Of a DNA stretch of 64,000 nt, positions 4,544 through 52,644 are shown piece by piece. The notes beneath the pieces are model-generated. The model did no database searches and was not told the origin of the DNA. It worked only from the letters and a program-made list of their open reading frames with translations. Position 1 is the first letter of the stretch; the number at the start of each line of letters is the position of its first letter. The stretch covers positions 42,211 through 106,210 of the forward strand of contig CAVBCV010000002.1 of NCBI GenBank assembly GCA_963594125.1. The letters run 5' to 3'. This DNA comes from Lachnospiraceae bacterium. Lineage in GTDB: Bacteria > Pseudomonadota > Alphaproteobacteria > RF32 > CAG-239. A program made the position numbers and the translations under genes.

Positions 4544-4549
4544 CGCGTC

Positions 4550-5692
4550 GTGAAACAGCAAGAGCTTATTGATTGGATTCAACTTATAAATTCTGACGGC
4601 ATCGGACCGGTCAGTTTTTATAAGCTCTTGAACAAGCACGGTTCGGCTGCTGACGCCTTAAAATATTTGTCGGCAAAACAAGCATTATTTTCTCGCAAAG
4701 ACGCGGACTATGTGCTTAAAAAAGCCGAACAGCTCAAAATTGCGATTATCGCCCGCACTGATGAGCTTTATCCGCAAAATATCGCCGAACTGAATGACGC
4801 ACCGCCGATATTATTTGTTAAAGGGCGCACGGATATTTTGAATTATCCTGCTATGATTTCAATCGTCGGCTCACGCAACGCTACGGTAAACGGGCGCAAA
4901 ATTGCCTCTAAAATTGCCTATGATTTAACTGAAAATGACGTGATTGTGGTATCCGGCATGGCGCGCGGTATTGACGCGGCAGCGCATAAAGGCGCGCTTT
5001 ACGCCAAAGAGCAGCAAGGCGTAACCATCGCGGTTTTAGGCACCGGCGTTGACGTTCCGTATCCGGCTGAAAATAAAGGCTTATATGAACAAATTTGCGA
5101 ACAAGGCACCATAATTTCAGAGTTTGTGCTCGGCACCACCCCGCAAGCCGCTAATTTTCCGCGCCGGAATCGTTTGGTATCTGCCCTAGGGATAGGGACT
5201 TTGGTAGTTGAAGCATCATTAAATTCAGGCTCATTAATCACCGCCCGCACCGCGCTTGAACAGGGCAAAGATATTTTTGCCGTTCCCGGTTCGCCGCTTG
5301 ACGGACGCTCCGCCGGAGCCAACAAACTTATTCGCGAGGGCGCGCTGTTAACCGAATCAGCCGATGATATTTTGCAAACTTTGCGCTTTACCCAAAATCA
5401 GCAGATTAAAACTTATTCTTTGCGCAAAGCAAAGGCAAACCCTCTTGACAAACCGCAAAAAAATGACAATATTTGCGCTCAAACCAACACGGCGGTTGTA
5501 ACGAGCGACACAACATCATTAACCGCGCTTATTCCGCCGGAAGGAATCGGCATTGACGAGCTTATCCGCACAGGCGGCGGCAACGCCGAACAAACCATGA
5601 TGATGATTACCGAACTGGAACTTGAGGGTGTGATTGAACGCATAAACGGCAGCACCTTAGTTTTGAAAAACAAAAGAAACAGGAAAAACTGA
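4550..5692 (+). CDS. dprA: DNA processing protein DprA (Smf)
   Basis: GTG start. Rossmann-like core with IVGSRNAT...VVSGMARGIDAAAHKGAL and FAVPGSPLD motifs. C-terminal winged-helix-like tail. plsY-dprA-topA synteny is common in alphaproteobacteria. Confidence 0.85.
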   Translation: MKQQELIDWIQLINSDGIGPVSFYKLLNKHGSAADALKYLSAKQALFSRKDADYVLKKAEQLKIAIIARTDELYPQNIAELNDAPPILFVKGRTDILNYPAMISIVGSRNATVNGRKIASKIAYDLTENDVIVVSGMARGIDAAAHKGALYAKEQQGVTIAVLGTGVDVPYPAENKGLYEQICEQGTIISEFVLGTTPQAANFPRRNRLVSALGIGTLVVEASLNSGSLITARTALEQGKDIFAVPGSPLDGRSAGANKLIREGALLTESADDILQTLRFTQNQQIKTYSLRKAKANPLDKPQKNDNICAQTNTAVVTSDTTSLTALIPPEGIGIDELIRTGGGNAEQTMMMITELELEGVIERINGSTLVLKNKRNRKN

Positions 5693-8148: not shown

Positions 8149-8149
8149 A

Positions 8150-8186
8150 TGTTACAATCCCTGTTTTAAGCAGGGATTGTTTGTAA
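8150..8186 (+). terminator. putative rho-independent terminator after topA
   Basis: Hairpin caatccctg-tttta-agcagggattg followed by tttgt, immediately after the topA stop. Confidence 0.4.
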
Positions 8187-8197
8187 GTGAGGAAAAA

Positions 8198-8491
8198 ATG
8201 GAAAAAGAACATTTAACAGAAACACAACGCTTAGCAAAAATGGACACAGCTATTGAAATTATGGCGGCGAGAATCGGCATTTGCATGCAGCGTATATTTG
8301 CAGAAGAAGAAAAGCCGGAAGCCGAGCAAAATCAAGAACTGCTCTCACGCCTTAACAAAGAAATGGTTATTTTATACGCCGAAAGAGATCGTATGTACGG
8401 CGGCGATAAAGATATACAAGAAAAAATTTACGAACAATATGCCCCTGAAGTAAAAGAATATTATTTGGGGAAGAAAAAGAATGTACGATAA
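8198..8491 (+). CDS. small helical protein, putative epsilon-type antitoxin
   Basis: 97-aa charged helical ORF (MEKEHLTETQRLAKMDTAIE...) with an RBS (gaggaaaaaATG). It lies directly upstream of, and overlaps by 11 nt, a zeta-toxin-like gene. The call rests on position and size only. Confidence 0.4.
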   Translation: MEKEHLTETQRLAKMDTAIEIMAARIGICMQRIFAEEEKPEAEQNQELLSRLNKEMVILYAERDRMYGGDKDIQEKIYEQYAPEVKEYYLGKKKNVR

Positions 8492-9437
8492 ATATAAACT
8501 GAGCGATGAACAACATAATGCTGTCTTAAATAAAATTTGCCGCAATTTGTTTTATGGCAAAACTCCGGCAGCGAATCCGCAAATATTTATTTTAGGCGGA
8601 CAACCCGGCGCCGGAAAAAGCATTTTGACAGAAAGAAGTTATCATAAATTAGGTAATAGCAACTTTGTTGTTATTAACAGCGATGAATTTCGTACTCAAC
8701 ACCCTAACGCGCAAGAAATTTTTGATAACCATGATAAAGACTTTGCCGCTTATACCGACCCTGATGTCAGGGTATGGGGCTCTGAAGTTTTTGACGCCGC
8801 CATCAAAGGGCGCTATAATATTATTTTTGAGGGCACCATGCGTACCACGCAAATTTGCGAAACCATTAAACGCCTGCAAGCTGAAAAATACACGGTTAAT
8901 ATTTTGGCAATGGCAGTGCCTGAAATTAAAAGCCGTATTTCAATTTATGCCCGCTATCAAGAGCAACTTGAAAATTATCCGATTGCTCGCTTTACCAGTC
9001 GTTTTTCACACGATGCCGCCTATCATGGCATGCTTGACACTTTGCAAAAAATTGAAAATGAAAAACTTTATGACACCATTACAATTTGTAACCGTAACGG
9101 AGATGTATTATTTAAAACCGGTGATAAAAATGTTGTAAATGCGATAAAAAAAGAACGTGAAAAACCGTTATCAGCATCTGATGCTTCTGATTTATTGCAA
9201 GATTGCAATGTGTTGCTTAAAAAAATGACAGAGCGCGGCGAATCCTCTGAATATATTGAAGACCTGCAATCTTTACGGCAACAAGTCAGGCAAAAAAGCT
9301 TAAATGAACGCTGTGAAAACTGTTTTGCCAATATTCATAATATGATACAAGAAGTAAAAAACAGCGACACTTGCGCAGCGCCACATTCTAAAGAAACTCC
9401 TTATAAAACTCCTACTCCCCAAAATCACGAAAGATAG
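8481..9437 (+). CDS. zeta toxin family protein (UDP-GlcNAc kinase-type toxin) with C-terminal extension
   Basis: Walker A P-loop in the zeta context: FILGGQPGAGKSILTE. Zeta-like core follows (VINSDEFRTQHPN, NIIFEGTMRT). 318 aa, so about 40-50 aa longer than canonical zeta/PezT. Confidence 0.7.
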   Translation: MYDKYKLSDEQHNAVLNKICRNLFYGKTPAANPQIFILGGQPGAGKSILTERSYHKLGNSNFVVINSDEFRTQHPNAQEIFDNHDKDFAAYTDPDVRVWGSEVFDAAIKGRYNIIFEGTMRTTQICETIKRLQAEKYTVNILAMAVPEIKSRISIYARYQEQLENYPIARFTSRFSHDAAYHGMLDTLQKIENEKLYDTITICNRNGDVLFKTGDKNVVNAIKKEREKPLSASDASDLLQDCNVLLKKMTERGESSEYIEDLQSLRQQVRQKSLNERCENCFANIHNMIQEVKNSDTCAAPHSKETPYKTPTPQNHER

Positions 9438-10290: not shown

Positions 10291-11280
10291 ATGGAACAAC
10301 AAGGCGAAATTATCATTTATCAGTCGGCTGACGGCAAAAACAAACTGGATGTAAAATTAGAAAATGAAACAGTTTGGCTTTCTCAATCTCAATTAGTTGA
10401 CTTATACCAAACCAGTAAATCCAACATCAGCGAACATATAAAAAATATTTTTAATGAAGGAGAACTATCTGCTGATTCAGTTGTTCGGAAATTCCGAACA
10501 ACTGCCGCTGACGGTAAAAAATATGAAGTATCATATTACAATCTTGATATGATTATTTCCTTAGGATACCGCATAAAGTCTTCTATTGCCACCCAATTCC
10601 GCATTTGGGCAACTGAACGCATAAAGGAATATATCATCAAAGGATTTACCATTGATGACGAACGTTTAAAGCAAAACGGCGGTGGAAATTATTGGAAAGA
10701 ATTGTTAGACCGCATCAGAGATATCCGCTCCTCTGAAAAAGTTTTATACCGTCAGGTTTTGGATTTATACGCTACAAGTTATGATTATAATGCCAAAGCA
10801 CCGGAAACTATTGAATTTTTTAAGGTTGTCCAAAATAAATTACATTTTGCCGCACACGGTCATACAGCATCAGAAGTTATATATGAACGCGCAAATGCCG
10901 ATAAGCCTTTTATGGGATTGACCACATTTTCCGGCAACCTACCGACTAAAGCCGAAGCCAAAATTGCTAAGAATTATTTAAGCGAAAAAGAATTAAAAGT
11001 ACTGAACAATCTCGTTTCCGGATATTTTGACTTTGCAGAAATCTATGCCGTCCGTCACGAACATTTATATATGAAAGATTACCTTAAACAGTTAGACAGC
11101 ATTTTATCTGCAACCGGCGAAAATATCTTACAAGGCGCAGGTAAAATCAGTCATAAAAAAGCAATGGAAAAAGTTGAGGCTGAATATAAAAAATATCAAG
11201 AAAAGACCTTAACTCCGATAGAACAAGCATATCTTGAAAACTTGAAAAGTTTGGAAAAAAAGATAGAAGACAAAAAATAA
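10291..11280 (+). CDS. RhuM family virulence/DNA-binding protein
   Basis: N-terminus IIIYQSADGKNKLDVKLENETVWLSQSQLVDLYQTSKSNISEHIKNIFNEGEL is the hallmark opening of RhuM-family proteins. 329 aa. Confidence 0.75.
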   Translation: MEQQGEIIIYQSADGKNKLDVKLENETVWLSQSQLVDLYQTSKSNISEHIKNIFNEGELSADSVVRKFRTTAADGKKYEVSYYNLDMIISLGYRIKSSIATQFRIWATERIKEYIIKGFTIDDERLKQNGGGNYWKELLDRIRDIRSSEKVLYRQVLDLYATSYDYNAKAPETIEFFKVVQNKLHFAAHGHTASEVIYERANADKPFMGLTTFSGNLPTKAEAKIAKNYLSEKELKVLNNLVSGYFDFAEIYAVRHEHLYMKDYLKQLDSILSATGENILQGAGKISHKKAMEKVEAEYKKYQEKTLTPIEQAYLENLKSLEKKIEDKK

Positions 11281-11320: not shown

Positions 11321-11418
11321 CAATACAACTTATGCACAGCACGGACTCGTAAATATTGCAAAAAAAAAACGCGAGCTAAAATCTTCTCAAATTTAACTTT
11401 TTGAGAGGATTTTAGCTC
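11321..11418 (+). promoter_or_regulatory. conserved pilin-gene 5' module, copy 1 (promoter/5'UTR; RBS-sequestering hairpin)
   Basis: The sequence caatacaacttatgcacagcacggactcgtaaatattgc-A10-cgcgagctaaaatcttctcaa-atttaacttt-ttgagaggattttagctc-ATG. The arms gagctaaaatcttctcaa and ttgagaggattttagctc form an 18-bp stem with one G-U pair. The GAGAGGA Shine-Dalgarno sits in the 3' arm, and the stem ends 1 nt before the ATG. Near-identical copies lie at 21724-21820 and 58938-59034. Confidence 0.6.
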
Positions 11419-12054
11419 ATGTATACACAATCGGGAAGAAGTATGGTAGAGATGCTCGGCGTCTTAGCGATAATTGGCGTCTTATCTGTTGGGGCGATAA
11501 GCGGCTATGGGAAAGCGATGTTTAAGTATAGACTTAATAAACAAACTGAACAGCTAAATCAGGTTATCGGCACGATTGTACGCTATAAAAGCAGCTTAAT
11601 GCTTAACCCCGCTTCTGCCGACGCGCCGGTTTCTGATTATAATATAGTTTCGTTACTTAAAAAGCTCGGTGAAATTCCAAAGGAAATGTATATCAATGAT
11701 GATAGATTTATCAAAGATGCTTTCGGAACCGAATATCAAATTTATCATCGCAATACCGATAAAAGCATTACTTTACGAACTGTAGATTTAGGCAGAAACG
11801 AAACTGGTTTTCAAATTTGCAAAAATTTATATTTAATTGCCAAAGAATGGCACCAAGAATTATACGTCATAATTGTTGCAGCTTATAAAGGTGATACGTA
11901 TTCATCAAAAGGCTGTTATTTGGGCGATAACAGCACATATCAAGGCTGCTCCTCTAAAAGATATATTAAAGACTTAAAGCTGAGCGAGCTTGACGATATT
12001 TGCCGGACTGCCGCCGATGAGCAAGGGCATTATTCGGTATCAATAGATTTTTAG
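11419..12054 (+). CDS. type IV pilin-like protein (prepilin, short leader), paralog 1
   Basis: MYTQSG|RSMVEMLGVLAIIGVLSVGAISGY has the class III signal: Gly at -1, Glu at +5 and a hydrophobic alpha1 helix. Four Cys in the C-terminal part. 211 aa. Confidence 0.7.
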   Translation: MYTQSGRSMVEMLGVLAIIGVLSVGAISGYGKAMFKYRLNKQTEQLNQVIGTIVRYKSSLMLNPASADAPVSDYNIVSLLKKLGEIPKEMYINDDRFIKDAFGTEYQIYHRNTDKSITLRTVDLGRNETGFQICKNLYLIAKEWHQELYVIIVAAYKGDTYSSKGCYLGDNSTYQGCSSKRYIKDLKLSELDDICRTAADEQGHYSVSIDF

Positions 12055-19532: not shown

Positions 19533-21261
19533 GCTGGCGTATTTTTTAGTTTTCTGCCTTATGCTGATTTCAGGCGCAGTATTTGCAGAAGAAAGAATAA
19601 CCTCATTTGACAGTTTAATTCAGGCGCAATATGACGGCTCGCTGATTGTTACCGAAAAAATTACGGTATATCATGAAGGCAAAGAAATCCGCCGCGGCAT
19701 ATATCGTGATTTACCGACCGGTAAAGGCGAAAAATACAAACTGCTGGAAATTTTAAGAAACGGCAATCCTGAACCAGGGTTTGTTGAAACAGGATATGGT
19801 TACTATCGCATAAATACCGGAAATGATGACTATCTGCCGCAGCCCGCTTTATCAGAATTTACTGTTAAGTATAAAGTATGGAACATTCCGCAGGCTTATG
19901 ACGGATATGATGAAATATATTGGAATGTTACCGGTGACGGTTGGCAGTTTCCGATAGAAAAGGTTTCAGCTAAAGTTGAATTGCCGAAAGAGGCTTCCAT
20001 AATTCAGCAAGCAAGCTACATCGGACGGTACGGGAGCACGGAATCGGCTATTGAGACCGGAGCCGGAAGTTTCAAGGGGAGGCTCTTGCTGCCCAGAGAA
20101 CAGATGACTATTGCCGTGGCGTTTACCCCCGGAGTTATTTCAACAAAAAAGATGGCGGACTATAAAAATATTTTTATGCCGGCGGGTTATATAGTTTATT
20201 TAATCTGTTTATTATGGATATGGTATAAAAAAGGCAGAGACCCGACCCAAAAAGCAATTATGCCACAATACGAGCCGCCCAAAGAGTTAAGCGCGGCGCA
20301 AGCTTATTGTTTATACAACAAAGGCGCGGTAAAAGACATATTCCCGATTTCTGTTATTCAGATGATAATAAACGGATTTTTGAAACTTACCACCAAAGAG
20401 GAAGGCGCTTTTATTTTTAAGAGTACGGTTTATTTGGTGGAAAGAACCGGCAAAGAACCTTCCAATATGGAAGAAAAACTTTATGATGAATCCGGAGTTT
20501 TAAAATTTGACGGAGAATACAACCCCGCAGCCAGAAGCTTATTCATCAAATATCTAAATGCCGTTGAGGCTTCGGTCAGCCATTTGTATGCAAAAAATAC
20601 GATATGGGTATTTATGCCAACGCTGCTGTATATTTTTAGTTTGCTTTTTGCCTATAATAATTTGACAGATTTTTTTAATATTATTGCGCCGATGATTTTT
20701 ACAGCTTTTGTGCTTACTTATGTCAGTTCATTACGGTTTAGCACCTTATTACGGCAAGGAGTATTCGCATCCTTATTTCTTTTAGTCAGTGGTTATCTGA
20801 TGTTTCTGTTTATTATATCGCCAAATTACAGAAATGATATGTTACCGTTTATACTGGTAAGCTTAACATTGGGTACTTCTGCCATTTTTTCATATTTAGT
20901 TTACAAACCGTCAGAAAAAGGGGCGCGGCTGATTGAACATCTGGAAGGGTTAAAAATGTTTTTGAAAGCAACCAAAGACCCGGATCATATCAAAAAAAGT
21001 TTGGACGATAAATGTATGGAAAAATTATTTCCGTACGCAATGGCTATCGGTTTGGAAAAAGAATGGGAAACAAAATTCACCTCATTATTCGGAAAAGAGG
21101 CTTATCAAGAGTTTATGCTATATCACCCGTACACAAGCAACATTTTTGCCCATAGTGTTTTTACTACTGCGCGACCAACACGCAATAGCGGTGGAAGCGG
21201 CTCGTTCGGCGGCGGATTTTCCGGCGGCGGACATGGCGGAGGCGGCGGAGGCGGCCGATAA
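19522..21261 (+). CDS. DUF2207 family membrane protein with Gly-rich C-terminal tail
   Basis: Signal peptide, N-terminal extracytoplasmic domain (ITSFDSLIQAQYDGSLIVTEKITVYHEG), multiple TM helices, C-terminal GGSGSFGGGFSGGGHGGGGGGGR. LemA + DUF2207 is a recurrent gene pair. Confidence 0.8.
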   Translation: MKNKLAYFLVFCLMLISGAVFAEERITSFDSLIQAQYDGSLIVTEKITVYHEGKEIRRGIYRDLPTGKGEKYKLLEILRNGNPEPGFVETGYGYYRINTGNDDYLPQPALSEFTVKYKVWNIPQAYDGYDEIYWNVTGDGWQFPIEKVSAKVELPKEASIIQQASYIGRYGSTESAIETGAGSFKGRLLLPREQMTIAVAFTPGVISTKKMADYKNIFMPAGYIVYLICLLWIWYKKGRDPTQKAIMPQYEPPKELSAAQAYCLYNKGAVKDIFPISVIQMIINGFLKLTTKEEGAFIFKSTVYLVERTGKEPSNMEEKLYDESGVLKFDGEYNPAARSLFIKYLNAVEASVSHLYAKNTIWVFMPTLLYIFSLLFAYNNLTDFFNIIAPMIFTAFVLTYVSSLRFSTLLRQGVFASLFLLVSGYLMFLFIISPNYRNDMLPFILVSLTLGTSAIFSYLVYKPSEKGARLIEHLEGLKMFLKATKDPDHIKKSLDDKCMEKLFPYAMAIGLEKEWETKFTSLFGKEAYQEFMLYHPYTSNIFAHSVFTTARPTRNSGGSGSFGGGFSGGGHGGGGGGGR

Positions 21262-21317
21262 ATATTTTTGCCTATCAGATAGGATATTTACTTTTAAGAT
21301 ATTGTATATATAATATT

Positions 21318-21428
21318 AATATAAGGGCAATGAAGAGTGGAAAGGACAGCCGCCGCCATGTGTGTTTTTTAATTAGAACACCTTGAAGAGATGTATGACA
21401 GAGATGTTCGCCTGTCCATTGCCCTTAT
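21318..21428. repeat. intergenic palindromic element
   Basis: ataagggcaatgaagagtggaaaggacagccg at 21318-21350 is the inverted complement of gcctgtccattgcccttat at 21409-21428. Confidence 0.3.
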
Positions 21429-21434
21429 CTTTTG

Positions 21435-21456
21435 CACAATACAACTTATGCACAGC
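21435..21456 (+). repeat. partial extra copy of the 5' end of the pilin 5' module
   Basis: caatacaacttatgcacagcac is identical to the first 22 nt of the module at 11321. Followed by degenerate similarity (cggattttgcaacaaaaacaaac). Confidence 0.4.
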
Positions 21457-21606
21457 ACTATTAATTCCCATCCCGAGGAGGGGTGGCGGCGATAGCCGAC
21501 GGGGTGGTGAAAATATAAGGATAGAAATTAGACAGGGATGTTGTTTATGTTTCGGATTTTGCAACAAAAACAAACATTTAATTTATTGTTGAATAGTGAT
21601 GTGACC

Positions 21607-21720
21607 ACCCCGCCTTCGGCATCCCTCCATAGAGGGGAATTTTTATAGTACCGCATCCATAGAGGGGAATTTTAAAATGGGTGGCACCCTGACTTGAAAT
21701 GGGAATTTTAAAGTGCGGAT
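21607..21720 (+). repeat. short direct repeats upstream of pilin paralog 2
   Basis: catcc(c)tccatagaggggaatttt occurs twice (21607-21642, 21650-21676). A third partial copy, gggaattttaaag, follows. Located immediately upstream of the conserved module copy 2. Confidence 0.4.
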
Positions 21721-21723
21721 TTA

Positions 21724-21820
21724 AATACAACTTATGCACAGCATGGACTCGTAAATATTGCAAAAAAAAAACGCGAGCTAAAATTCTCTCAAAACTAACT
21801 TTTTGAGAGGATTTTAGCTC
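21724..21820 (+). promoter_or_regulatory. conserved pilin-gene 5' module, copy 2
   Basis: aatacaacttatgcacagcatggactcgtaaatattgc-A10-cgcgagctaaaattctctcaaaactaactttttgagaggattttagctc-ATG. Hairpin arms gagctaaaattctctcaaa and tttgagaggattttagctc. Confidence 0.6.
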
Positions 21821-22588
21821 ATGTATACATATTTTAGCCGCCTTTTACACCGCACGCCGTCACACTCCGACTTGATCGGAGTGTCCAGGTGGGGGAAATT
21901 TGCTAATTTGGTTGACCTGGACCATCGGGTCAAGCCCGATGGTGACAACATTGTGAATGCTGGTAGGTCTATGGTGGAAATGCTTGGCGTGCTCGCGATT
22001 ATCGGAGTGCTGAGTGTTGGTGCAATAAGCGGTTATAGCAAAGCCATGTACAAATATAAACTTAACAAACAAGCTGAACAGCTTAATACTGTAATAAATG
22101 CTGTTGCCCGCAATGCGCACAGCTTTGATAATTTGTTAGCCAATAAAGGCGCCTTTTATATAACTGATACTTTTGTTAAAATGGGTGAAATTCCAACTGA
22201 AATGCAATACAGCGAACATTATATCCGTGATGTGTTTAATCTTTTTTGGACAATAAGTATACTAAACTATGACACCGGCACTTCATTAAATTTATCAGCT
22301 AACGAAGAAGGCACTTTAAAAAATAAATCAGCAAATAATTTGGACATTTGCCGCAATATTATTACTGTTGCTAAGGAAAATTCAGACAGTATCGCTTCAG
22401 TCTCAAACGTGATTTATAATCAAGACAGCGATAACTATACCGCAACCTCTTTATATGGCGATGCGTACTGCCTATCGGGCAGACCTTGTTTAAGAAACTT
22501 GAGCCTTGACGATATTTATAACTTTTGCACAAAATTTACCGGCGGCGACAAGCTGCCTCAGCTTAAAATAACATGGTGGATTAAGTAA
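21821..22588 (+). CDS. type IV pilin-like protein, paralog 2 (long N-terminal extension)
   Basis: The ORF from the conserved ATG reads MYTYF...(about 47 aa)...NAG|RSMVEMLGVLAIIGVLSVGAISGYSKAMYKYKLNKQAEQL. The mature part is homologous to paralog 1. Four Cys in the C-terminal part. An alternative internal GTG/ATG start closer to the G|R site is possible. Confidence 0.65.
   Translation: MYTYFSRLLHRTPSHSDLIGVSRWGKFANLVDLDHRVKPDGDNIVNAGRSMVEMLGVLAIIGVLSVGAISGYSKAMYKYKLNKQAEQLNTVINAVARNAHSFDNLLANKGAFYITDTFVKMGEIPTEMQYSEHYIRDVFNLFWTISILNYDTGTSLNLSANEEGTLKNKSANNLDICRNIITVAKENSDSIASVSNVIYNQDSDNYTATSLYGDAYCLSGRPCLRNLSLDDIYNFCTKFTGGDKLPQLKITWWIK
21831..21961 (+). mobile_element. RPE-like palindromic insertion, in-frame in the pilin 5' region (copy A)
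   Basis: About 130 nt absent from paralog 1. It forms three consecutive hairpins: cactccga-cttga-tcggagtg, ccaggtggggg...ttgacctgg and ccatcggg-tcaagc-ccgatgg. The reading frame is preserved. Confidence 0.45.
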
Positions 22589-23552
22589 TTTCAGTAATCG
22601 CACGCAGGTTGCCATCGCGGTTAATTTGTACCACCCGTAGCTTATGGCGCATTTCTTCAATGGTTTTAACGCGGTCAATAGTCGGATAAGTATGCAAAAT
22701 ACGGTCGGTAAACGCCTGATACGCGGCTTCAGAGCTTTCAGCGTGAATAGTTGCCAAGCAGTTATCGTGACCGGAGCCCATCAGCTCCCACAAAGCGCCG
22801 GCGTTGCTGGTTGAAATTTCACCACCGATAATGGCGTCAGGCGTAAAACGCACTACAAGGTCAATAATTTTGGCATAGTCCATTTGGTTGGTTTGCTCAG
22901 TACGCGATAACACCAAATGCACGCGGTTAGGATGCGGAACCAAAAGCTCGCGCGTATCTTCAATGGTTACAATGCGCTTATGAATATCCAAAATTTTTAA
23001 CAAGTTGTTCAAAAAGGTGGTTTTACCGGTTGAAGTTGCGCCGCTGACTAAAATATGATCACCGCGCTTAATGCTTAACAACAAGCGTTCATACGGGTCT
23101 TCAGGGTCTTTAATCTGCTTTAAAGGGTTGATTTTGTGTAATCCATGTCCTTGCGACAAGCCGTAATCTTCAAGTCCGAAAGCAACCTCATCGCTATGAA
23201 CACGGATAGTTAAGGCCACGCCGCCGGTTAAGTCATCTTGGTCATACATGATGTTACGACCGGCAATGGCTGAAAAACGGTGATCGCCGGGGATTGTGGC
23301 GTACACTACCGGCGAGCCTTGAATCGGGTCAAACGGAAGCTCATAAGTGTTGGCAACAATATAAAGCAAGTCAGTTAAATACTCTTTTGAGAGCTTTTCA
23401 TCTTTGTACATTACCCACGGATAAGCCCTTTTACCGCGCAAGCGCAGCCAAATTTGACCGGAGCGGTTTATCGCCACCTCTTCAATGTTATCTTGATTAT
23501 ACCAATAAGAGAGCGGACGTAACACTGATTCTAAAACCGTAAATGTGCTCAT
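22581..23552 (-). CDS. virB11: type IV secretion ATPase VirB11
   Basis: ILVSGATSTGKTTFLNNLL P-loop (the GGTSTGKTTF-type Walker A typical of VirB11). TIEDTRELLVPHPNRVHLV (HPNRVHL as in VirB11). PDAIIGGEIS and CLATIHAESS His-box. 323 aa. Confidence 0.85.
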   Translation of the reverse strand: MSTFTVLESVLRPLSYWYNQDNIEEVAINRSGQIWLRLRGKRAYPWVMYKDEKLSKEYLTDLLYIVANTYELPFDPIQGSPVVYATIPGDHRFSAIAGRNIMYDQDDLTGGVALTIRVHSDEVAFGLEDYGLSQGHGLHKINPLKQIKDPEDPYERLLLSIKRGDHILVSGATSTGKTTFLNNLLKILDIHKRIVTIEDTRELLVPHPNRVHLVLSRTEQTNQMDYAKIIDLVVRFTPDAIIGGEISTSNAGALWELMGSGHDNCLATIHAESSEAAYQAFTDRILHTYPTIDRVKTIEEMRHKLRVVQINRDGNLRAITEIT

Positions 23553-23563
23553 GGGCTGTTCTC

Positions 23564-26500
23564 CTAGAATAACTGTGCCGAAGTGTTAGTGCTGCCGGCG
23601 GTTGACGACGGCGGAGGAGTTGCCCCCACTGAAGTTACCGGCGGAATTGCCTGTCGCTGCTGCTGTCTGCGCTTTTGCTTATTAGCCTCGGCATTATCAT
23701 CAATCAACGGAGTGGTCGGCTGAACATTATCAGCTTCATTATCCATATAAACAACGCCTTGAGTACCGCCGGAGGTTCCGGTACCGGAGCTGCCGCCACC
23801 GCTGCTCTTGCTTGAAGAACCTTGGTCACGGTCATCAATAAGAACCGTCGGCTTATTCAGAGCGTCAAGAGCTTCTTCATCGCTGCGGGCCGCAGTGCGT
23901 ATCCACAAATCTTCCTTAGGATAAATAATCAAACGAGTGCCGGCCGGAACATAAGTAATCGCCTCAATATTGGTTTTATCCTGCAAAATTTGATTAAACA
24001 TATCGTCCATGTTTTGCAAAAAGTTTTCACGGGCATCTTGCGCAGCCTCAGCGCGAGCATTTGAAGTAGTGCTGCCGTCAGATGAGGTTGAGGTTTCGCC
24101 ACTGGCGGCAATATACGCAACCGCGCTGCTCATCAAGGTGGTTACCATCGGCAAAGTATACTTTTTAAGCAACTGCTCATCAAGATAACCGATAGCTCCG
24201 CCGCGACCTTGAGCATCACCGGTTTGCGCCGATGAAAATTCAAACGCTGAGCCGTCAGGACGAATAAGCCGGTTCCAGGTAATAGAAACACGAACCGCGC
24301 CGCCGCTGTTACCGCCGCTTGAACCGCCGGAAGATGTGCCCATAACACGGCTACCGGCCGGAATAACGATATTGCGCCCTTGCTCGGCGTATACGTTGCG
24401 TTCAACAATCGCCGTTACCGGAGCGCTGTCTGAACCGTTGCTTGACATAATGGTACGAGCCAAAACAGCCGGAATCGGCTTATCAGCCAAAATCATTTCG
24501 CTCATATCAACACGCCAACTTGAAATTTGACGCGGAATACCGTCCCAATACGGCTGCATACCGTCAAAACTCTTGGTATCGGCATTGGTTGAAACTTTGC
24601 CGACCGTGATTTCCTGCCGACGAGCCGCCTGAGCCGCCGCTAACGCCGCCGCCCGAACCGGATCATATCTTTCTCCGGGACCAAAGCCGCCACCCGGACC
24701 TAAATTTGACGGATTGTTTCCGGTGCCGTAAGCGCCGCCCGAACCGAACGTGCCGGCCGGAATAAACATTTGTCCGCCTTTGTTGTCTTTAACTTCTTCA
24801 ATACCGATTAAGCCGCCTTCATTATCCACAATCAAGCCATCCGGCATTTTTTTACCGATTAAATTGCCAAGCTTATCAACAACATCATTGTTGATCAAAA
24901 TATCGCCAAGATAATTGCCGTCAGGCGTTAAGGCAATGCCGATGGTTTTAAGCCCGTATTTGCCGGTATCGTCCGTGGTGGAACCTTGCGGAACATCAAC
25001 AGCGCCGATATTGATTTTGCCGCTATCCGGTTTGCCGGTGCCATCGCGGCGGGGAGTGTTTGCCCAATCCGCCGGTTTAGGCTCGCTCGGTTTTACCACA
25101 TTATAATACTGCAGTTCTTTTGCTAATGCCAAAACTTTGCCGCTATCATCACTGATTTCACCGCTGCCGCTGATTTTACCGATAACTTTACCGTCATGAT
25201 TGATAACTTCGCCGTTTAAGCGCAGTTCGCCGATAACATTATTAGCGTCATCGCGGATAAAGTAATCACGGTTGCCGCGACCGATTAAAGTATAATCTTT
25301 GCTGACTAAAAAGCCTCTGTCGGCTTTGCCGATACGATTACCGGCAAAATTAAGCACTATTCCGTCACGGGTTAAATAACCAAGCGTGTTGCCTTCGTCA
25401 TCATAAACATAAAAATCATACAAGGCATAACCAATGTTTTTATTATCATTAACCACCGTACCGTCAGCCAAAACTTTACCTAAAATGTCGTTTTTATCGC
25501 TGATGACCGTGCCGTCTGAAGTTACACGACCTAAAAAGCTGTTATCATGGTTAAAGGCAACTTTATAGCGGAAAGCCATACCTAAAACCTCACCGCCTGA
25601 TGATAACGCCGTGTCATCAGGCTGCATATAACCGAGCTCTTTGTTAGTAGAGCTGATAATTTTGCCGCTGGTATTACTGCGACCAAGTATATTGTTTTCA
25701 AAGTCAATTACCGGGAATACTTCTGCCACCCGACCGATAAATTTACCGTCATTGTTATAATAGCGCCCATTCCAAGTAACACAGCCTAAATCTTCATGAT
25801 TGTAGTTAAGCAAATGTCCGAGCGGATTAACCGTGCCTAAGCCTTTACCGGCAAAGTCAGCAACCATGCCTGATTTTACGCCGAAGCCTATCATATTGCC
25901 AACCTCAGATACTGCCTGCCCATTGGTTAAAATTTTGCCAAGCACAACGCCGCGGCTGTTGCGGATTTCACCGCGCGGACCGATAACACCCAAAAATGAG
26001 CATTTGTTGTTAACCACGCTGCTCATATTGCTGATTTTACCGATTAATGATTTGTTGGTATCAGCAACAATATCACCACCTAAAACCGAACCGATTTTGT
26101 TACCGGCAAAATCTCGCACAGCGCCGAAAATATCAGCATAGCCAAGCATATCGCCACTGATTGAGGTTGCTAAAAATGATTGTCCGGCGCCGCCGATAAC
26201 CGGCATTTGCTTGTTATCAGGCGTTCCGGTTGCCGAAATGACTTTATAACCGGGGACAATTTTGCCGCTGATATTACCCTTTTCATCAGTGATTAAATTG
26301 GTTTCAGTTAACGAACCCAAACTCTGCCCATCAGCTGAAACGACAAAATACGGATTAAGCGTGCCGACAACAACTTTATTGGCTGCGTCAAGGGCTAAAC
26401 CGGTTGCAGTTAATTTATAATTTCTTTCAGCCGGAATGCCCTGCAATTCGGCATTAACACCGATATATCCGCTAAGCTCGCCCGCCTCAGTATACAAGGC

Positions 26501-27811
26501 TGAGAGCGGAACGGAATTTCCGACCAATAAATTATCGGCAGAATATACATATCCGAACGGCGAAACCTTAAATTTGTTAATGCCGTCTTCAGAAAAATCA
26601 GCTCCGATACCGCTTAAACCCACTAAATTGGAACTATTATCAAAAATCAGCGCTGTTTCAGGAGCGGCGCCGATAATGCGCCCGATATTATCATAAGCAA
26701 TTTTGCCTTTGGCATAACCAAGCGGCGTTCCGGTTACGGAAATAACCGCGCCGCTGCGCAAGATTTGAGCTTGCAGTTCAGCCAAATAATCAAACACCGG
26801 TCCCGATTTAATCACCTGACCGATAATTTTACCGTCAGGGTCTTTTACAAAACCGCGGGCAGTGATAGTACCTACGCTTTGCTGAGCCTTGTAAACGCTT
26901 CCGTCCGGCATAACGCGTCCTAAATATTTGCCTTTTAAATCCGTTGCCGTGGCGGCAATATCAATTTTAAAGCCGATAACCTCATTTTGATTGTTAATAA
27001 TTTTATCATCGGCGCGTAATTTGCCAACAACTTTACCCAAGCTGATAACCTCGCCGTTATAGGCAACCAAGCCAAGATATTTGCCGAAATTATCAAAAGC
27101 ATAACCGTTGGAAACCGCTTTACCGATAACTTTATTATTTTCATCATAAGCAAAACCGTTAGCATGAATTTTGCCGATAACTTTAGCCTCAAAATCCGTT
27201 ACTTTTCCGCCGGGGGCAATACTGCCGATAAAATCGCCGGTTGGCGAAACAACCATTTTGGCGGAAATTAATTTACCGTCTAACACATACCCGTTGCCGC
27301 TGTTACGATAAGCATAACCCATGGCGGAGATAAAACCGATATTTTGTCCTTCCATGCTGATATATTGCCCGTCGCCGGTTAAACGACCAATCGCGTCGCC
27401 TTTATCATTATAAACCAATCCCGGATATAAAACCGCGCCCAAAATATTGTACGAATCGTCAACCACTAAAGCATTCGGCAGCACTTTACCTACAATTTTG
27501 CCGGACGGAAGACGCACTGAGCCGTCATTATTTACTCGTCCTAAAAGTTTATTATCATTGCCGATAGCAATACCCTGAGGAATAATGCCGCCTTTAATCT
27601 CGCCTTTGTTATTTACAATAAAACTATCAGCGGTAATGTTGCCGATAACTTCATTGTCAAAGCTGACCACCGTACCGTCAGGAATAACCTTACCGATTAA
27701 ATCGCCGTTAAAATTAATGGCCGTAATTTCTTGCGCAAAAGCCGAACCGGCCGTCATACAAATGACCGCCGTTAACATGATTTTGCATAATTTCAGTAAT
27801 TTTCCTGCCAT
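23564..27811 (-). CDS. virB10: giant repeat protein with VirB10/TrbI C-terminal domain
   Basis: Start at MAGKLLKLCKIMLTAVICMTAGSAFA (signal or anchor; RBS ggagga upstream). About 1100 aa of about 11-residue tandem repeats (GxxIGxVxxDGxVxx). A Gly/Ser-rich linker follows. The C-terminus contains PAVLARTIMSSNGSDSAPVTAIVERNVYAE...RVSITWNRLIRPDGSAFEF...AITYVPAGTRLIIYPKEDLWI, matching the VirB10 beta-barrel domain. Confidence 0.7.
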   Translation of the reverse strand: MAGKLLKLCKIMLTAVICMTAGSAFAQEITAINFNGDLIGKVIPDGTVVSFDNEVIGNITADSFIVNNKGEIKGGIIPQGIAIGNDNKLLGRVNNDGSVRLPSGKIVGKVLPNALVVDDSYNILGAVLYPGLVYNDKGDAIGRLTGDGQYISMEGQNIGFISAMGYAYRNSGNGYVLDGKLISAKMVVSPTGDFIGSIAPGGKVTDFEAKVIGKIHANGFAYDENNKVIGKAVSNGYAFDNFGKYLGLVAYNGEVISLGKVVGKLRADDKIINNQNEVIGFKIDIAATATDLKGKYLGRVMPDGSVYKAQQSVGTITARGFVKDPDGKIIGQVIKSGPVFDYLAELQAQILRSGAVISVTGTPLGYAKGKIAYDNIGRIIGAAPETALIFDNSSNLVGLSGIGADFSEDGINKFKVSPFGYVYSADNLLVGNSVPLSALYTEAGELSGYIGVNAELQGIPAERNYKLTATGLALDAANKVVVGTLNPYFVVSADGQSLGSLTETNLITDEKGNISGKIVPGYKVISATGTPDNKQMPVIGGAGQSFLATSISGDMLGYADIFGAVRDFAGNKIGSVLGGDIVADTNKSLIGKISNMSSVVNNKCSFLGVIGPRGEIRNSRGVVLGKILTNGQAVSEVGNMIGFGVKSGMVADFAGKGLGTVNPLGHLLNYNHEDLGCVTWNGRYYNNDGKFIGRVAEVFPVIDFENNILGRSNTSGKIISSTNKELGYMQPDDTALSSGGEVLGMAFRYKVAFNHDNSFLGRVTSDGTVISDKNDILGKVLADGTVVNDNKNIGYALYDFYVYDDEGNTLGYLTRDGIVLNFAGNRIGKADRGFLVSKDYTLIGRGNRDYFIRDDANNVIGELRLNGEVINHDGKVIGKISGSGEISDDSGKVLALAKELQYYNVVKPSEPKPADWANTPRRDGTGKPDSGKINIGAVDVPQGSTTDDTGKYGLKTIGIALTPDGNYLGDILINNDVVDKLGNLIGKKMPDGLIVDNEGGLIGIEEVKDNKGGQMFIPAGTFGSGGAYGTGNNPSNLGPGGGFGPGERYDPVRAAALAAAQAARRQEITVGKVSTNADTKSFDGMQPYWDGIPRQISSWRVDMSEMILADKPIPAVLARTIMSSNGSDSAPVTAIVERNVYAEQGRNIVIPAGSRVMGTSSGGSSGGNSGGAVRVSITWNRLIRPDGSAFEFSSAQTGDAQGRGGAIGYLDEQLLKKYTLPMVTTLMSSAVAYIAASGETSTSSDGSTTSNARAEAAQDARENFLQNMDDMFNQILQDKTNIEAITYVPAGTRLIIYPKEDLWIRTAARSDEEALDALNKPTVLIDDRDQGSSSKSSGGGSSGTGTSGGTQGVVYMDNEADNVQPTTPLIDDNAEANKQKRRQQQRQAIPPVTSVGATPPPSSTAGSTNTSAQLF

Positions 27812-27821
27812 AGTTAACACT

Positions 27822-30800
27822 TTAATTCCTCCGATTTTGAGCAACTTCCTGCAATGCGTAACCTGATACATTTTTATCTAAGTCAACAAACGAGCCGTTG
27901 CTTTTTAAGTATCCGATGTCTTTACCGTTACCTGATATAACTCTGCCGGTTGCCGCCAAGCGTCCCAAATATTTACCGTCATTTGAAACTATCGCCGTTC
28001 CGGTTTTATAGGACATACCTAAAATAGCATTTTGATTATCAACCGCCAAGCGCCCTGATAAAACCCGTCCGATAACAGAATTATCAAACCCGCGAACCGT
28101 GCCGTCAAAGCCGACATAAGCCACAACTTTATCCTGATTGTTAATTACAATATCGGCATCGGCAATTTCACCTATTAAACGACCTTCTTTATTTACCGCT
28201 TTACCATCGGAATAAACTTTGCCGATAACCACATTTTTGGTATTGATTACCGCGCCGTCAGGCAATACGGAACCGATAATTTTGCCGCCGTAATTAATTA
28301 CAACGCCGCGTTTAAGCACACTTAAATTTTTATCGCTTGCGCCGCCGGGGAGTATAAAAGTTGTCCGTTTAGAATTTAAATCGCGCACTCCGCCGGAAGC
28401 ATCAGTGTATCCGGTATAATTTCCGAATAAGTCAGTTACCACCGATTCAGGCACAACCTCGCCGATTACATTGCCGTTATCAGCGTTTAAGATTAATCCG
28501 TCACTGTTTTCAAGACCGGCTTTTTTACCTTTTTTATCAATAACCGTGCCATCAGCTTTAACATAACCTAAATACGAACCGTCATAACCGATTGCGGCGC
28601 CGGTGCGAACAATGCCGCCCGCGTATTGGTGCTTATCATCAAACCAGCGACCTTTGGCATCAGCCTGCCCCAAGTGTTCGCCGAAACGAGTTACAACTCT
28701 GCCATCCGCATTAATAAAACCTACATTTTTGCCGTTAAAATCAACCACTTTACCAAACGGAAGCAGTTTGCCGATGTTGCCGATATAAAAGCTCATGCCA
28801 TCACCGTAAATGCGGTCAATCACAGCGCCTTTATTATCATAAACATTGCCGTCAGCAAACAGACGACCGATAATATTACCGTCTGAATTTAACAAAATAT
28901 TTTTTTCAGGCAACGCCACCCCGATTATCTTATTGTTTTTATCAGCAATGTATTTGTGCAAAAACAACTTGGCGTCAGGGTGAGCTTTAATTTGCAAGGA
29001 GCCGTCAGATTCAAACGTACCTAACAATTTTCCATTTAAATCAAAGGCATAAAACGGCTGCGAGATTTTACCCAAATAAATTCCGTCTGAGGTGAATACT
29101 TCATCGTCAGTATTAACACATCCCACCGGCAATAATGCCGCAGAAACAACGTTGCCGGTCGGCACTAATCTTCCGACTACCCCGCCTTCAGCATTAAACG
29201 CCACTTTATACCGCGCAACTTTGCCGATAATATCGCCGTTATCATTTAACACACTGCCATCAGGATTTACGCAGCCGACATATTTTTTATCTTCATTTTT
29301 AACAATACCCTGCTCATCGGCGTCGCCAAGATAATTGCAGCTATTGTCAAACACGCGACCGGTTTTTACAACATCGCCCATATAAATATTTTTTTCATTA
29401 TAAACACTGCCGTCAGCATACACATGATAAGGCATATCCTGCCCATCTTTGGTAATAACGCCGGTTTTATTTAAAACTCCGACATTAGAGCAGCCCCAAC
29501 CGATTATAGTACCGCCGCGAACACCTTTCGCCACAAATTTGGAGCCGTTAGCCTCTTTAACCAAAGTGTTCGGCAACATACGACCCAACACCTGACCGCG
29601 GGTATTAATAACTTCTCCGGTCGGCGAAACATTGCCTAAAACCTTGCCTTCCGGTGTTATCGGAATTAAATCTGCGCGAACAATAGCGCCGATTTTGACT
29701 GCTTTGTTACTGATGACATTGCCGTCTTTATCCACCCTGCCAACTATACCGCCGTCAGCGCCCACTACGGAACCGTCTTTTTTTACATAACCCAATACTT
29801 TGCCGTCATCACTGACTGCCAAATTATTATACTCTCCTACTCTGCCGACAATATTACCGCGCTCATCAATAATAGTGCCGTCAGGCTGCATTTTACCGAT
29901 AACCCGCCCGTTAGCGTCTAAAATAGTGCCATCTTCAAGCTTTTTCCCGATTTTGTTACCGTTAAAATCATAAATTGTGCCGTCTTCATCAATATAGCCG
30001 ACCGCATTTCCATCCGCGTCATAATATATCTGCCGCGACGCGCCGAGTTTACCGATTTTTTCATTGCTTAACTTATAGGCATCGCCGTTTTCATCAACAT
30101 AACCAACCACATTGCCATCCGTATCAACAATAGAGTTATCAGGCATAACCACGCCTAAAACATTGCCGCTTTCATCAACCGCGGTACGTCCGGGTTTGCT
30201 GACATAGCCGATAACATTGCCGTTCATATCAACAACTTCGCCATTAGAATTTAACCTGCCGATAACGTTACCTTCTTTATCTACCACCGTGCCGTCTTCA
30301 AGCACTCTGCCGATAACATTACCGTTGGAATCGTAAACATATCCGGCTTCTACCGATTTACCGATTTTTACCCCATTACGATCAACCACTGTACCATCAG
30401 ATATTTCTTTACCGATAACATTGCCGTTAAAATCAAAAGCTTTACCATCAGCGCTGACTTTACCAATAACATTGCCGTTATCGTCATAAATCAGTTTTTT
30501 ATTACCGGCGACACCGATAATATTGCCGTTTTCATCAACGATGAGTCCGTCTTCATTAACCCTGCCGATAACATTACCGTCTTCATCACGAACATAACCT
30601 TCATCATCAATATAACCGATGATTTTACCATCCGGACCATAGGCTATGCGGTTTTTGCCATCATCAGCCATGGCTTTGCCGATAGTTTTACCGCTTTTAT
30701 CCAAAACATTGCCTTTAGCATCCAAAGTGCCAAGTTTGTTACCGTTTAAGTCAACTACTTGCCCGTTCGGCGTAACATATCCGATAATATTGCCGCTTGT

Positions 30801-31937
30801 ATCTCTGACAATTCGGCTGTTTCCGGGCGCTGTTTTGCCAATTAAGCTACCATCTTTATCAACAACATTGCCATAAGCGTCAGCCGTGCCGATTTCGTTA
30901 CCGTTTAAATCAACAGCCTGTCCGTCAGGAGTGATATAGCCGATAATATTGCCGTCCGCATCTTTGATAACCATGGTGTCACCGGTTGAAACTTTACCGA
31001 TTACATCGCCGCTTTTATCTAAGACATTGCCATTAGAATCAACCGTACCAAGGCGTTCGCCTTTTAAGTCAACCGCTTTACCGTTCGGGGTAATGTAACC
31101 AATGATTTTTCCGTTAGAATCGCGGATAACCAAATTTTCACCGGAAACGGCTTTACCGATAACATTACCATTTTTATCAATAACATTGCCATTAGCGTCA
31201 AGATAGCCGATTTCATTGCCGTTTAAGTCAAACGCGCGTCCGTCAGGGGTGACATAGCCAATAATATTACCGTCAGCATCTTGGATAAGCATGCGTTCAG
31301 CGCCATCTGAAGCGCCGCCGGAAGGAGTGGTGGTGCAAAAGTTGCAATCGGCCTGCGTAACTGCTTTACCGTCAACCGGAACTTTTTCAGCTTTGGCATT
31401 TTGCGCACCGACATTAGTTTCATGCCATGAGATAATAAAATTATTCTGCACATTGCCGCCGGTGGTCGGGAACCATTGCATGGTAACATTACAAGTTTGA
31501 TTGCCGCGTAATTCTTTGCCGCTGCAATCATCATCATAGCGGAATCCCTCAAACGGAGGTTCGGCAAGCTTTACTGAAACAATGCGAATAGGCGTTTTGC
31601 CGGTGGTGCCGATAGTCAGCACGTTTTTAGCATCTGTGCCCAACACAACCTGCCCCATATTAACCGGGTTCGGCGTGGTGGTAATCGGGAGTTCGGTTTC
31701 CTCCACTTCTTCAAACTCAAGATTATTGATGAGAGGATTGGTGTTTTCATTAAAATCTATTACATTGTCATCAGCGGTAAATACCGGCTCTTGTGATTCT
31801 TCGGGAGCCGCCCCGCTTGAAAACAACAGCAACAAACCAAATAAAAACACCACAAAAGAAGTAATACCAACAATCAAAATTATTCGGTTGGTTTTACGAA
31901 CATATCTTTCAGAGTGTGTTAAAACTTCTTTACTCAT
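27822..31937 (-). CDS. giant repeat protein with VirB10-like N-terminal topology (cytoplasmic tail, single TM, Pro/acidic linker)
   Basis: MSKEVLTHSERYVRKTNRIILIVGITSFVVFLFGLLLLF gives a cytoplasmic N-terminus plus one TM. An acidic/Pro linker and a Cys-containing globular segment follow. Then about 1100 aa of the same 11-aa repeat family (DxNGNxIGxVxPDGxxVD...) organised in about 44-aa super-repeats. It ends 10 nt upstream of the VirB10-domain gene. Confidence 0.6.
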   Translation of the reverse strand: MSKEVLTHSERYVRKTNRIILIVGITSFVVFLFGLLLLFSSGAAPEESQEPVFTADDNVIDFNENTNPLINNLEFEEVEETELPITTTPNPVNMGQVVLGTDAKNVLTIGTTGKTPIRIVSVKLAEPPFEGFRYDDDCSGKELRGNQTCNVTMQWFPTTGGNVQNNFIISWHETNVGAQNAKAEKVPVDGKAVTQADCNFCTTTPSGGASDGAERMLIQDADGNIIGYVTPDGRAFDLNGNEIGYLDANGNVIDKNGNVIGKAVSGENLVIRDSNGKIIGYITPNGKAVDLKGERLGTVDSNGNVLDKSGDVIGKVSTGDTMVIKDADGNIIGYITPDGQAVDLNGNEIGTADAYGNVVDKDGSLIGKTAPGNSRIVRDTSGNIIGYVTPNGQVVDLNGNKLGTLDAKGNVLDKSGKTIGKAMADDGKNRIAYGPDGKIIGYIDDEGYVRDEDGNVIGRVNEDGLIVDENGNIIGVAGNKKLIYDDNGNVIGKVSADGKAFDFNGNVIGKEISDGTVVDRNGVKIGKSVEAGYVYDSNGNVIGRVLEDGTVVDKEGNVIGRLNSNGEVVDMNGNVIGYVSKPGRTAVDESGNVLGVVMPDNSIVDTDGNVVGYVDENGDAYKLSNEKIGKLGASRQIYYDADGNAVGYIDEDGTIYDFNGNKIGKKLEDGTILDANGRVIGKMQPDGTIIDERGNIVGRVGEYNNLAVSDDGKVLGYVKKDGSVVGADGGIVGRVDKDGNVISNKAVKIGAIVRADLIPITPEGKVLGNVSPTGEVINTRGQVLGRMLPNTLVKEANGSKFVAKGVRGGTIIGWGCSNVGVLNKTGVITKDGQDMPYHVYADGSVYNEKNIYMGDVVKTGRVFDNSCNYLGDADEQGIVKNEDKKYVGCVNPDGSVLNDNGDIIGKVARYKVAFNAEGGVVGRLVPTGNVVSAALLPVGCVNTDDEVFTSDGIYLGKISQPFYAFDLNGKLLGTFESDGSLQIKAHPDAKLFLHKYIADKNNKIIGVALPEKNILLNSDGNIIGRLFADGNVYDNKGAVIDRIYGDGMSFYIGNIGKLLPFGKVVDFNGKNVGFINADGRVVTRFGEHLGQADAKGRWFDDKHQYAGGIVRTGAAIGYDGSYLGYVKADGTVIDKKGKKAGLENSDGLILNADNGNVIGEVVPESVVTDLFGNYTGYTDASGGVRDLNSKRTTFILPGGASDKNLSVLKRGVVINYGGKIIGSVLPDGAVINTKNVVIGKVYSDGKAVNKEGRLIGEIADADIVINNQDKVVAYVGFDGTVRGFDNSVIGRVLSGRLAVDNQNAILGMSYKTGTAIVSNDGKYLGRLAATGRVISGNGKDIGYLKSNGSFVDLDKNVSGYALQEVAQNRRN

Positions 31938-52626: not shown

Positions 52627-52644
52627 CAGTAAAGGAATAATACC

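Follow-up and report, generated by a model that had tools for sequence, protein, structure and literature searches.

In the 64,000-nt stretch of DNA analysed here (from contig CAVBCV010000002.1, and referred to in its entirety as the window), which derives from an uncultured gut alphaproteobacterium, the gene for a type IVb-like prepilin, pilin paralog 2, carries an in-frame palindromic insert between its start codon and its prepilin cleavage site. This cassette recurs across related pilin genes, and its hairpins are conserved as nucleic-acid structure. At a probability of roughly 60%, we read it as a doublet resembling repetitive extragenic palindromes (REPs) that would have been captured in a cleavable prepilin leader, exchanged between genes by recombination, and retained with hairpins that act in cis on expression. 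The element is real, conserved and unusual: palindromes within coding sequence are a known phenomenon, and the cleavable prepilin leader is a new niche for them.

Hairpins conserved as nucleic-acid structure

The window encodes three pilin paralogs on the + strand, all with the invariant motif G followed by RSMVEMLGVLAIIGVLSVGAI, cleavage falling between G and R (written G/R below). After the codons ATG TAT ACA (21821-21829), paralog 2 has 44 codons more than paralog 1 before the invariant G/RSMVEML, with the codon for the cleavage-site G at 21962-21964. An earlier note on this DNA had placed about 130 nt of extra sequence directly after codon 3. This extra DNA is real, and its limits were set by comparison with the nearest homolog of paralog 2 (P0002, 91% amino-acid identity), which has the short leader MYTYTQSG. 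The contig carrying P0002 (L199) is 95% identical to the window at the DNA level, with syntenic genes for LemA, DUF2207, the pilin and a VirB11-like ATPase. Positions 3902-4012 of L199 correspond to 21722-21832 of the window, and positions 4020-8645 to 21960-26588; as homology ends at 21832 and restarts at 21960, the insert spans 21833-21959. The cassette is thereby polymorphic: of two orthologous genes, in genomes with 95% identity, only one carries it. Comparison of the filled and empty sites showed no target-site duplication or direct repeat at the insert junctions.

Within the insert lies an 88-nt core closed by GTCA and TGAC, and consisting of three consecutive hairpins (HP1 to HP3) with the same stems as those described in the earlier note. 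HP1 pairs CACTCCGA with TCGGAGTG around a CTTGA loop, HP2 pairs TCCAGGT with ACCTGGA, and HP3 pairs CCATCGGG with CCCGATGG around a TCAAG loop. HP1 and HP3 are one 28-nt module in opposite orientations (GTCA, an 8-bp stem, the CTTGA loop and TCC; in sequence form, GTCANNNTCSGRCTTGAYCSGANNNTCC), in which the stem sequences differ, so that the core is an inverted doublet around a 32-nt spacer. When folded as RNA, the paralog 2 cassette gave -44.9 kcal/mol (z -3.6; 0 of 200 shuffles were equally stable), and as single-stranded DNA -25.1 kcal/mol (z -5.3).

An alignment of 30 distinct homologous cores from several host species revealed how strictly this structure is maintained. Every core was exactly 88 nt long with no indels, the GTCA flank was invariant (30/30), and 99.5% of the cells of the alignment that fall in stems were paired. 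Ten pairs, five in HP1 and five in HP3, covaried with changes on both sides (121 cells with such changes), and the observed covariation score was reached in none of 500 shuffles, with slid controls also far below it. The same structure was predicted independently by RNAalifold from the 30 copies. Within the window, the core of paralog 3 is 76% identical to that of paralog 2, and carries four compensatory pair changes in HP1 and three in HP3.

The stems fall into a small number of distinct variants, each fully complementary (CACTCCGA, CACTCCGG, TATTCGGG, CCATCGGG, TTATCGGG and CTCTCCGA), and a switch from one to another alters the encoded residues in lockstep (H..V, Y..I, P..W, L..E). As these variants change the peptide while remaining complementary, it is base pairing, rather than the encoded peptide, that is constrained. 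These data show that the hairpins are conserved as nucleic-acid structure, a property on which the earlier note had made its reading depend. The same variant was found in both arms in 0 of 115 distinct leaders, compared with 8.3 expected, although these leaders are interrelated and their counts do not represent separate events; a rule of this kind would keep the cassette from forming one long perfect palindrome. Mismatches that could separate selection on RNA from selection on DNA, by an asymmetry between G:U and A:C, were very few (4 T:G versus 1 A:C).

Distribution of the cassette and its module

A protein search returned at least 7722 homologs, all of them in metagenome assemblies and labelled no more precisely than 'Alphaproteobacteria bacterium', and ~95 of the 120 best of these have a long N-terminal extension made from the same pieces. 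Species-representative genomes yielded 77 loci, all in metagenome-assembled genomes (MAGs) of uncultured Alphaproteobacteria from gut or faeces (human, horse, roe deer and others). Together with the window these loci amount to 958 kb, a sample of pilin-gene flanks. Among their 104 pilin N-termini, 41 have a short leader, 31 a full cassette, 11 a half or contig-truncated cassette and 19 other long leaders (types B and C), the long leaders of family members measuring 47 to 92 aa. Genomes carry many paralogs (at least 12-15), which have conserved 5' flanks and divergent bodies.

The sample contains 75 GTCA-hairpin-TCC modules, 72 of which precede a recognised pilin cleavage site by 450 nt or less. 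Two of the remaining three lie in a pilin that the pattern had missed (L034) and one lies elsewhere (L027), which places 74 of 75 in pilin leaders and shows that the cassette is confined to such leaders in this lineage. Further copies of the insert, for which the earlier note had proposed to search, therefore exist, beginning with the core in paralog 3, and the idea that the element is peculiar to paralog 2 has to be given up in favour of a family-wide cassette.

The same leader site also holds palindromes of other kinds. Leaders of type B (L066, L020, L012, L017, L011, L061) and of type C (L048, L033, L071) are unrelated in sequence to the cassette studied here, and both consist of in-frame palindromic hairpins of ~100 nt whose z values lie between -4 and -10. 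Immediately 3' of pilin stop codons, type B is found as well (L008 10826-10926, L015 10687-10781 and others). With three unrelated palindromic cassettes at one site, the leader-coding segment is a place of repeated landing or retention for such elements.

Many MAG contigs stop inside the cassette or the conserved pilin 5' region (L003, L004, L009, L026, L029, L044, L050, L053, L068). Contig ends inside the cassette indicate that these repeats fragment short-read assemblies, with gene callers yielding truncated or extended pilins (P0030, P0061). A practical warning follows: because of the repeats, MAG assemblies break at pilin genes and protein predictions are inflated.

Outside this lineage, the module and its doublet architecture are part of a widespread, mostly intergenic repeat. 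An exact-pattern scan of metagenomes with GTCA-N3-TCSGR-CTTGA-YCSGA-N3-TCC, a pattern that with complementary N3 fits both arms of both window copies, matched at least 120 contigs of 36% to 72% GC. Among the contigs listed only one was a pilin gene, and of the 141 matches on them about 136 (read by eye) formed perfect hairpins at the unspecified positions as well, for which the chance expectation is 1 in 64. In 61 of the 141, the match was followed by an inverted partner hairpin and then TGAC, with spacers of 11 to 123 nt; most partners have a TCAAG loop and GGA before the stem, and the two stems differ in 59 of the 61. A typical doublet matched 149 records, of plasmids or chromids, from Rhizobium, Sinorhizobium, Shinella and their relatives, with 14 copies in a 620-kb Shinella plasmid and at least 39 in a 4.6-Mb record. 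No coding sequence lay under the doublet in any of 40 listed matches in rhizobial replicons. In this respect the earlier note's proposal of a repeat element holds for the hairpin module, which is multicopy and intergenic in other bacteria. These Rhizobiaceae doublets may correspond to the RIME or Sm-repeat classes of Sinorhizobium. Literature searches for the hairpin sequence, its translated peptides, the RIME or Sm-repeat consensus and palindromes in prepilin leaders returned nothing usable. Rfam gave no match at gathering score in the window (at E<=10, only generic hairpin noise at 21250-22050), and the metagenome doublets matched none of its families.

Tandem arrays of five or six GTCA-hairpin-TCC doublets within 1-1.3 kb were observed on two long metagenome contigs of 0.6-0.8 Mb and 60% GC (L094 3552-4868 and L129 721-1761). 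On either side of the doublets in these arrays stand inverted repeats, one arm rich in CT and the other in GA (…CCTCTCC GTCA…TGAC GGAGAGG…).

Origin, spread and role

On the reading that we prefer, an intergenic doublet like REP or RIME, from a family common in other Alphaproteobacteria, would have been captured in a pilin leader, the one site in such a gene at which extra residues should be harmless because the leader is cleaved off. From there the cassette may have been gained, lost and swapped between paralogs by homologous recombination through the conserved flanks, with the promoter, upstream hairpin and ATG on one side and the coding region of the alpha-1 helix on the other. The leader MYTYTQSG of the L199 ortholog is consistent with a crossover between the 5' ends of a long-leader and a short-leader gene. 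As a last and weakest step, the structure would act in cis on the expression of accessory pilins through messenger stability or translation rate. We consider such a role probable because pairing and length are kept strictly while neighbouring sequence drifts, and because unrelated palindromes share the site.

Several observations weigh against this account. The short-leader paralogs and the L199 ortholog manage without the cassette, and some outer modules are decayed yet in frame (e.g. VKFEND), as would be expected of a functionless passenger. The specificity for pilins is bounded by a sample that consists of pilin-gene flanks and not of whole genomes. The link to the rhizobial and metagenomic repeats appears to consist of the 28-nt signature and the architecture only; when the whole core was compared with plasmids and phages by BLAST, the matches did not exceed module length and had E of 0.2-0.9. 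In addition, a GTG at 21953 in paralog 2 and an ATG at 59203 in paralog 3 lie in frame after Shine-Dalgarno-like sequence in the 3' arm of HP3, which makes internal initiation conceivable for these two genes, and the window ORFs scanned included no recognisable prepilin peptidase.

The first two of these points bear on a rival in which the cassette has no host function, any in-frame and stop-free insert being tolerated at this site and spread by pilin duplication and gene conversion. Such a neutral passenger, which we regard as a serious though not the more probable alternative, would be dispensable, as the existence of short-leader paralogs and of an ortholog of 91% amino-acid identity without the cassette implies. 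It would also accommodate three unrelated palindromic cassettes at the same permissive site, decayed modules that remain in frame, a leader predicted to be disordered, and a module whose family is an intergenic repeat elsewhere. What it leaves unexplained is the strictness of the structure: stems are paired and length is invariant across the cores of several hosts, whereas the HP2 interior and the tails diverge. Hairpins are not needed for recombinational spread, so their upkeep requires another cause, and the avoidance of identical stems in the two arms likewise runs counter to a passenger.

A role at the level of DNA, in which extrusion of a cruciform or hairpin promotes exchange between promoter-leader segments and pilin bodies, and with it adhesin or antigenic variation, seems to us possible but quite unlikely. 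It would fit the 12-15 or more paralogs per genome with their conserved 5' flanks and divergent bodies, the free combination of stem variants among paralogs, the resemblance of the L199 leader to a hybrid of long and short leaders, the stable fold of the core as single-stranded DNA, and the many contigs that break inside the cassette. However, homology of the flanks alone can explain the exchange, and contig breaks are expected of any repeat.

The earlier note had also offered the alternative of a structured 5' untranslated region, in which the conserved ATG is unused and an internal GTG or ATG shortly ahead of G/R serves as the start. Candidates for such starts exist in the window, as the GTG of paralog 2 (21953-21955) is preceded by GGTGA, and the ATG of paralog 3 (59203-59205) lies 9 nt past GGAG in the 3' arm of HP3. 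Nevertheless, the evidence from the whole family makes this alternative highly improbable. When the start codon was anchored independently of frame, as the ATG abutting an upstream hairpin with 15 or more of 18 pairs formed, its distance from the R(+1) codon proved divisible by three in 38 of 38 genes. This includes all 25 long leaders, which have 15 different lengths (90-333 nt) and of which 24 are stop-free. Tails, measured from the last hairpin to G/R, come in lengths of 15, 18, 27, 30, 33 and 72 nt, each divisible by three, and among some 35 distinct tails about 20 are free of ATG, GTG and TTG up to the cleavage site. The same ATG is the sole possible start in short-leader paralogs.

Codon usage points in the same direction. 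The R and S codons of RSMVEML are different synonymous codons in paralogs 1-3, from which it follows that translation certainly begins upstream of the cleavage site. Diversity at the three codon positions was 0.17/0.24/0.39 in the unpaired HP2 interior, with the third position highest, compared with 0.13/0.05/0.53 in the mature N-terminus used as a control. Since all long leaders are in frame and about half of the tails lack a start, read-through from the conserved ATG is favoured, and with it translation of the cassette as part of the leader. As the earlier note had stated, the frame of paralog 2 is open from the ATG through the insert, giving a leader of 48 aa (it had estimated about 50), and the palindromic repeat is embedded in frame in the leader-coding region. 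We infer that the leader is removed at G/R by prepilin peptidase.

That the cassette is a true member of the Rickettsia palindromic elements (RPEs), a dispersed mobile element that happened to land in paralog 2, is hardly credible: it shares with them its palindromic nature, similar size and in-frame position in coding sequence (PMC10969869, PMC3184786), but its modules are not dispersed in the pilin-gene flanks sampled and lie, with the one exception, at a single site of one gene family, there is no target-site duplication, neither NCBIfam (in which the presence of RPE models is unconfirmed) nor Rfam gave a match, and the host is an uncultured gut alphaproteobacterium and not Rickettsia.

On a further reading, the cassettes would be no passengers and might form the cis-acting part of a system of pilin or adhesin variation in gut Alphaproteobacteria. 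As structured modules set between the common promoter, hairpin and ATG and the conserved coding region of the alpha-1 helix, they would govern, by way of messenger stability or translation, the choice of the paralog to be expressed among the 12-15 or more present, and would be junctions for the swapping of bodies between loci. We consider this reading unlikely. If true, such a system would offer another route to variation besides the R64 shufflon and Neisseria pilE/pilS conversion, one built by repeated capture of unrelated palindromic repeats at one site.

The window and known systems

The coordinates of the features discussed are collected in Table 1.

Table 1. Pilin genes of the window and the elements within their 5' regions (HP, hairpin).
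Feature	Position	Strand	Description
Pilin paralog 2	21821-22588	+	type IVb-like prepilin, 255 aa, 48-aa leader; mature start R49, codon 21965-21967
Start codon ATG of paralog 2	21821-21823	+	common to short- and long-leader paralogs by alignment; in frame with cleavage site in 38/38 anchored members
Insert	21833-21959	+	127 nt here, 7 nt (ACACAAT) at the orthologous site of the 95%-identity relative
88-nt palindromic core, paralog 2	21859-21946	+	GTCA 21859-21862, HP1 21863-21883, HP2 21884-21921, HP3 21922-21942, TGAC 21943-21946
Tail from core to cleavage site	21947-21964	+	encodes NIVNAG; in-frame GTG 21953-21955, possible internal start in paralog 2 only
Pilin paralog 1	11419-12054	+	6-aa leader MYTQSG; same promoter, hairpin and ATG; without cassette
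Pilin paralog 3	59035-59832	+	66-aa leader; directly downstream of type IVb pilus gene cluster
Second 88-nt core, paralog 3	59112-59199	+	HP1 TATTCGGG/CCCGAATA, HP3 CACTCCGG/CCGGAGTG
Truncated extra module before paralog 3 core	59073-59084	+	GTCACACTCCGA
20-bp hairpin ending at the ATG of paralog 2	21775-21820	+	Shine-Dalgarno-like GAGAGGA in 3' arm; common to the three paralogs

Upstream sequence of ~100 nt is common to paralogs 1-3, and includes the hairpin that ends at the ATG, which recurs at 11373-11418 (paralog 1) and 58989-59034 (paralog 3). A reading of the conserved upstream region as a sigma-54 or sigma-70 promoter, weighed by eye, was set aside. The hairpin is conserved in related MAGs, where it translates as NLLKxNFLRRFLM, and looks like a translational control element common to the whole pilin family. 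The first codons of the insert, ATTTTAGCCGC (21831-21842), make up a near copy of the 3' arm in the hairpin before the ATG, ATTTTAGCTC (21771-21784), and could pair with its 5' arm, GCGAGCTAAAAT, freeing the ribosome-binding site. All three codon positions are conserved in this 5' segment of the leader at the start of the insert.

The pilin identity of these proteins is supported by the invariant G48 (-1) and E53 (+5) and by the hydrophobic residues of the N-terminal helix in the alignment, and the mature part shows the type IVb pilin fold. The leader of paralog 2 is predicted to be disordered, and a helix is predicted at residues 50-98. Pfam assigned no family to the three paralogs, and NCBIfam gave only weak pseudopilin matches to the whole proteins. 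A look-up by exact sequence retrieved no record for the window protein. A type IVb pilus cluster occupies 50238-58899 (TcpQ, secretin, PilO, T2SSE ATPase, T2SSF platform protein and a bundlin/PilS-like ORF).

Other features of the window were noted in passing. Three giant ORFs of 1435, 1371 and 1352 aa, consisting of dozens of 51-nt (17-aa) repeats, are encoded on the - strand at 23564-31937 and 35505-39563, within a cluster for VirB-type type IV secretion (VirB11-like, two VirB8 and VirB4-like genes). Paralog 1 is closely preceded by a zeta-toxin family gene and a RhuM-family gene (8481-9437 and 10291-11280), an indication that the DNA here is accessory or mobile. Upstream of paralog 2 is a repeat-rich intergenic block of ~450 nt (21271-21721), replaced in L199 (2125-3901) by 1.78 kb with two genes. 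The promoter-proximal sequence CAATACAACTTATGCACAGCA occurs twice in and beside this block (around 21437 and 21727), CCATAGAGGGGAATTTT is also repeated there, and parts of the block reappear upstream of other pilin genes. A sub-threshold Rfam match to skipping-rope RNA falls at 21326-21423 (22.1 bits, gathering score 36.7; E 0.017 in an 801-nt search).

Among known systems, the RPEs were the analogy drawn in the earlier note. These elements (RPE-1 to RPE-10) are dispersed over many unrelated genes and the intergenic regions of one genome, and to our knowledge palindromic repeats in frame within genes are textbook material only for Rickettsia. RPEs are palindromic repeats of ~105-150 bp that lie in frame in protein-coding genes and are translated as an extra peptide (PMC10969869, PMC3184786). 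The cassette would resemble them as a stable hairpin palindrome of comparable size, in frame and read through. It is unlike them in its confinement to the prepilin leader site of one gene family (as sampled in pilin-gene flanks), and in sitting in a segment that is cleaved off rather than in the mature protein. With neither dispersal in this sample nor a target-site duplication, the specific analogy with RPEs is not supported. Searching NCBIfam with the three leader peptides at E<=10 gave no match, the presence of RPE models in that library being unconfirmed. We also considered whether RPEs share the module of the cassette, and dropped the idea: an approximate Rickettsia-type hairpin query matched no Rickettsia plasmid and only Rhizobium plasmids, weakly. 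The cassette extends in-frame palindromes to a different bacterial lineage and offers a clear rationale for them, in that a repeat in a segment cut off before use lets nucleic-acid structure and coding coexist without cost to the mature protein.

Like the RAYT-associated REPs and REPINs of Enterobacteria and Pseudomonas, the cassette is composed of short hairpin modules, each with a conserved tetranucleotide at its 5' end, that are paired in inverted orientation around a short spacer. The tetranucleotide, however, is GTCA in every copy aligned and GTAG in REPs, and the two stems of the cassette are systematically different. REPs lie outside genes and number tens to hundreds per genome, whereas the cassette is intragenic and, in this lineage, pilin-specific; the extragenic, multicopy character is found instead in the related doublets of Rhizobiaceae. 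The latter and their environmental counterparts share with the cassette the same 28-nt module, the inverted partner with TCAAG and TGAC, the unequal stems and similar spacer lengths. By contrast, the Rhizobiaceae doublets are multicopy and intergenic where the pilin cassette is in frame in coding sequence, their spacer sequence is unrelated, and BLAST similarity over the whole element is not significant. The cassette also has the inverted terminal modules of a miniature inverted-repeat transposable element, and lacks the target-site duplication of one. With thousands of homologs in gut metagenomes and three cassettes at one site, the family constitutes a natural experiment on co-option of REP-like elements for gene control versus mere tolerance of them.

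The pilins themselves compare well with the type IVb prepilins TcpA, CofA, BfpA and PilS of R64 and Salmonella, with which they share G(-1) and E(+5), the long N-terminal helix and the type IVb fold, as well as an adjoining cluster of TcpQ, secretin, PilO, ATPase and platform-protein genes. Leaders of type IVb prepilins measure ~15-30 aa (PMC3927602). Those described here are either 6 aa long or, where a palindromic repeat encodes the extra length, 47-92 aa. The latter figure is two to three times what is usual for type IVb, which makes these leaders a direct test case for what prepilin peptidase accepts.

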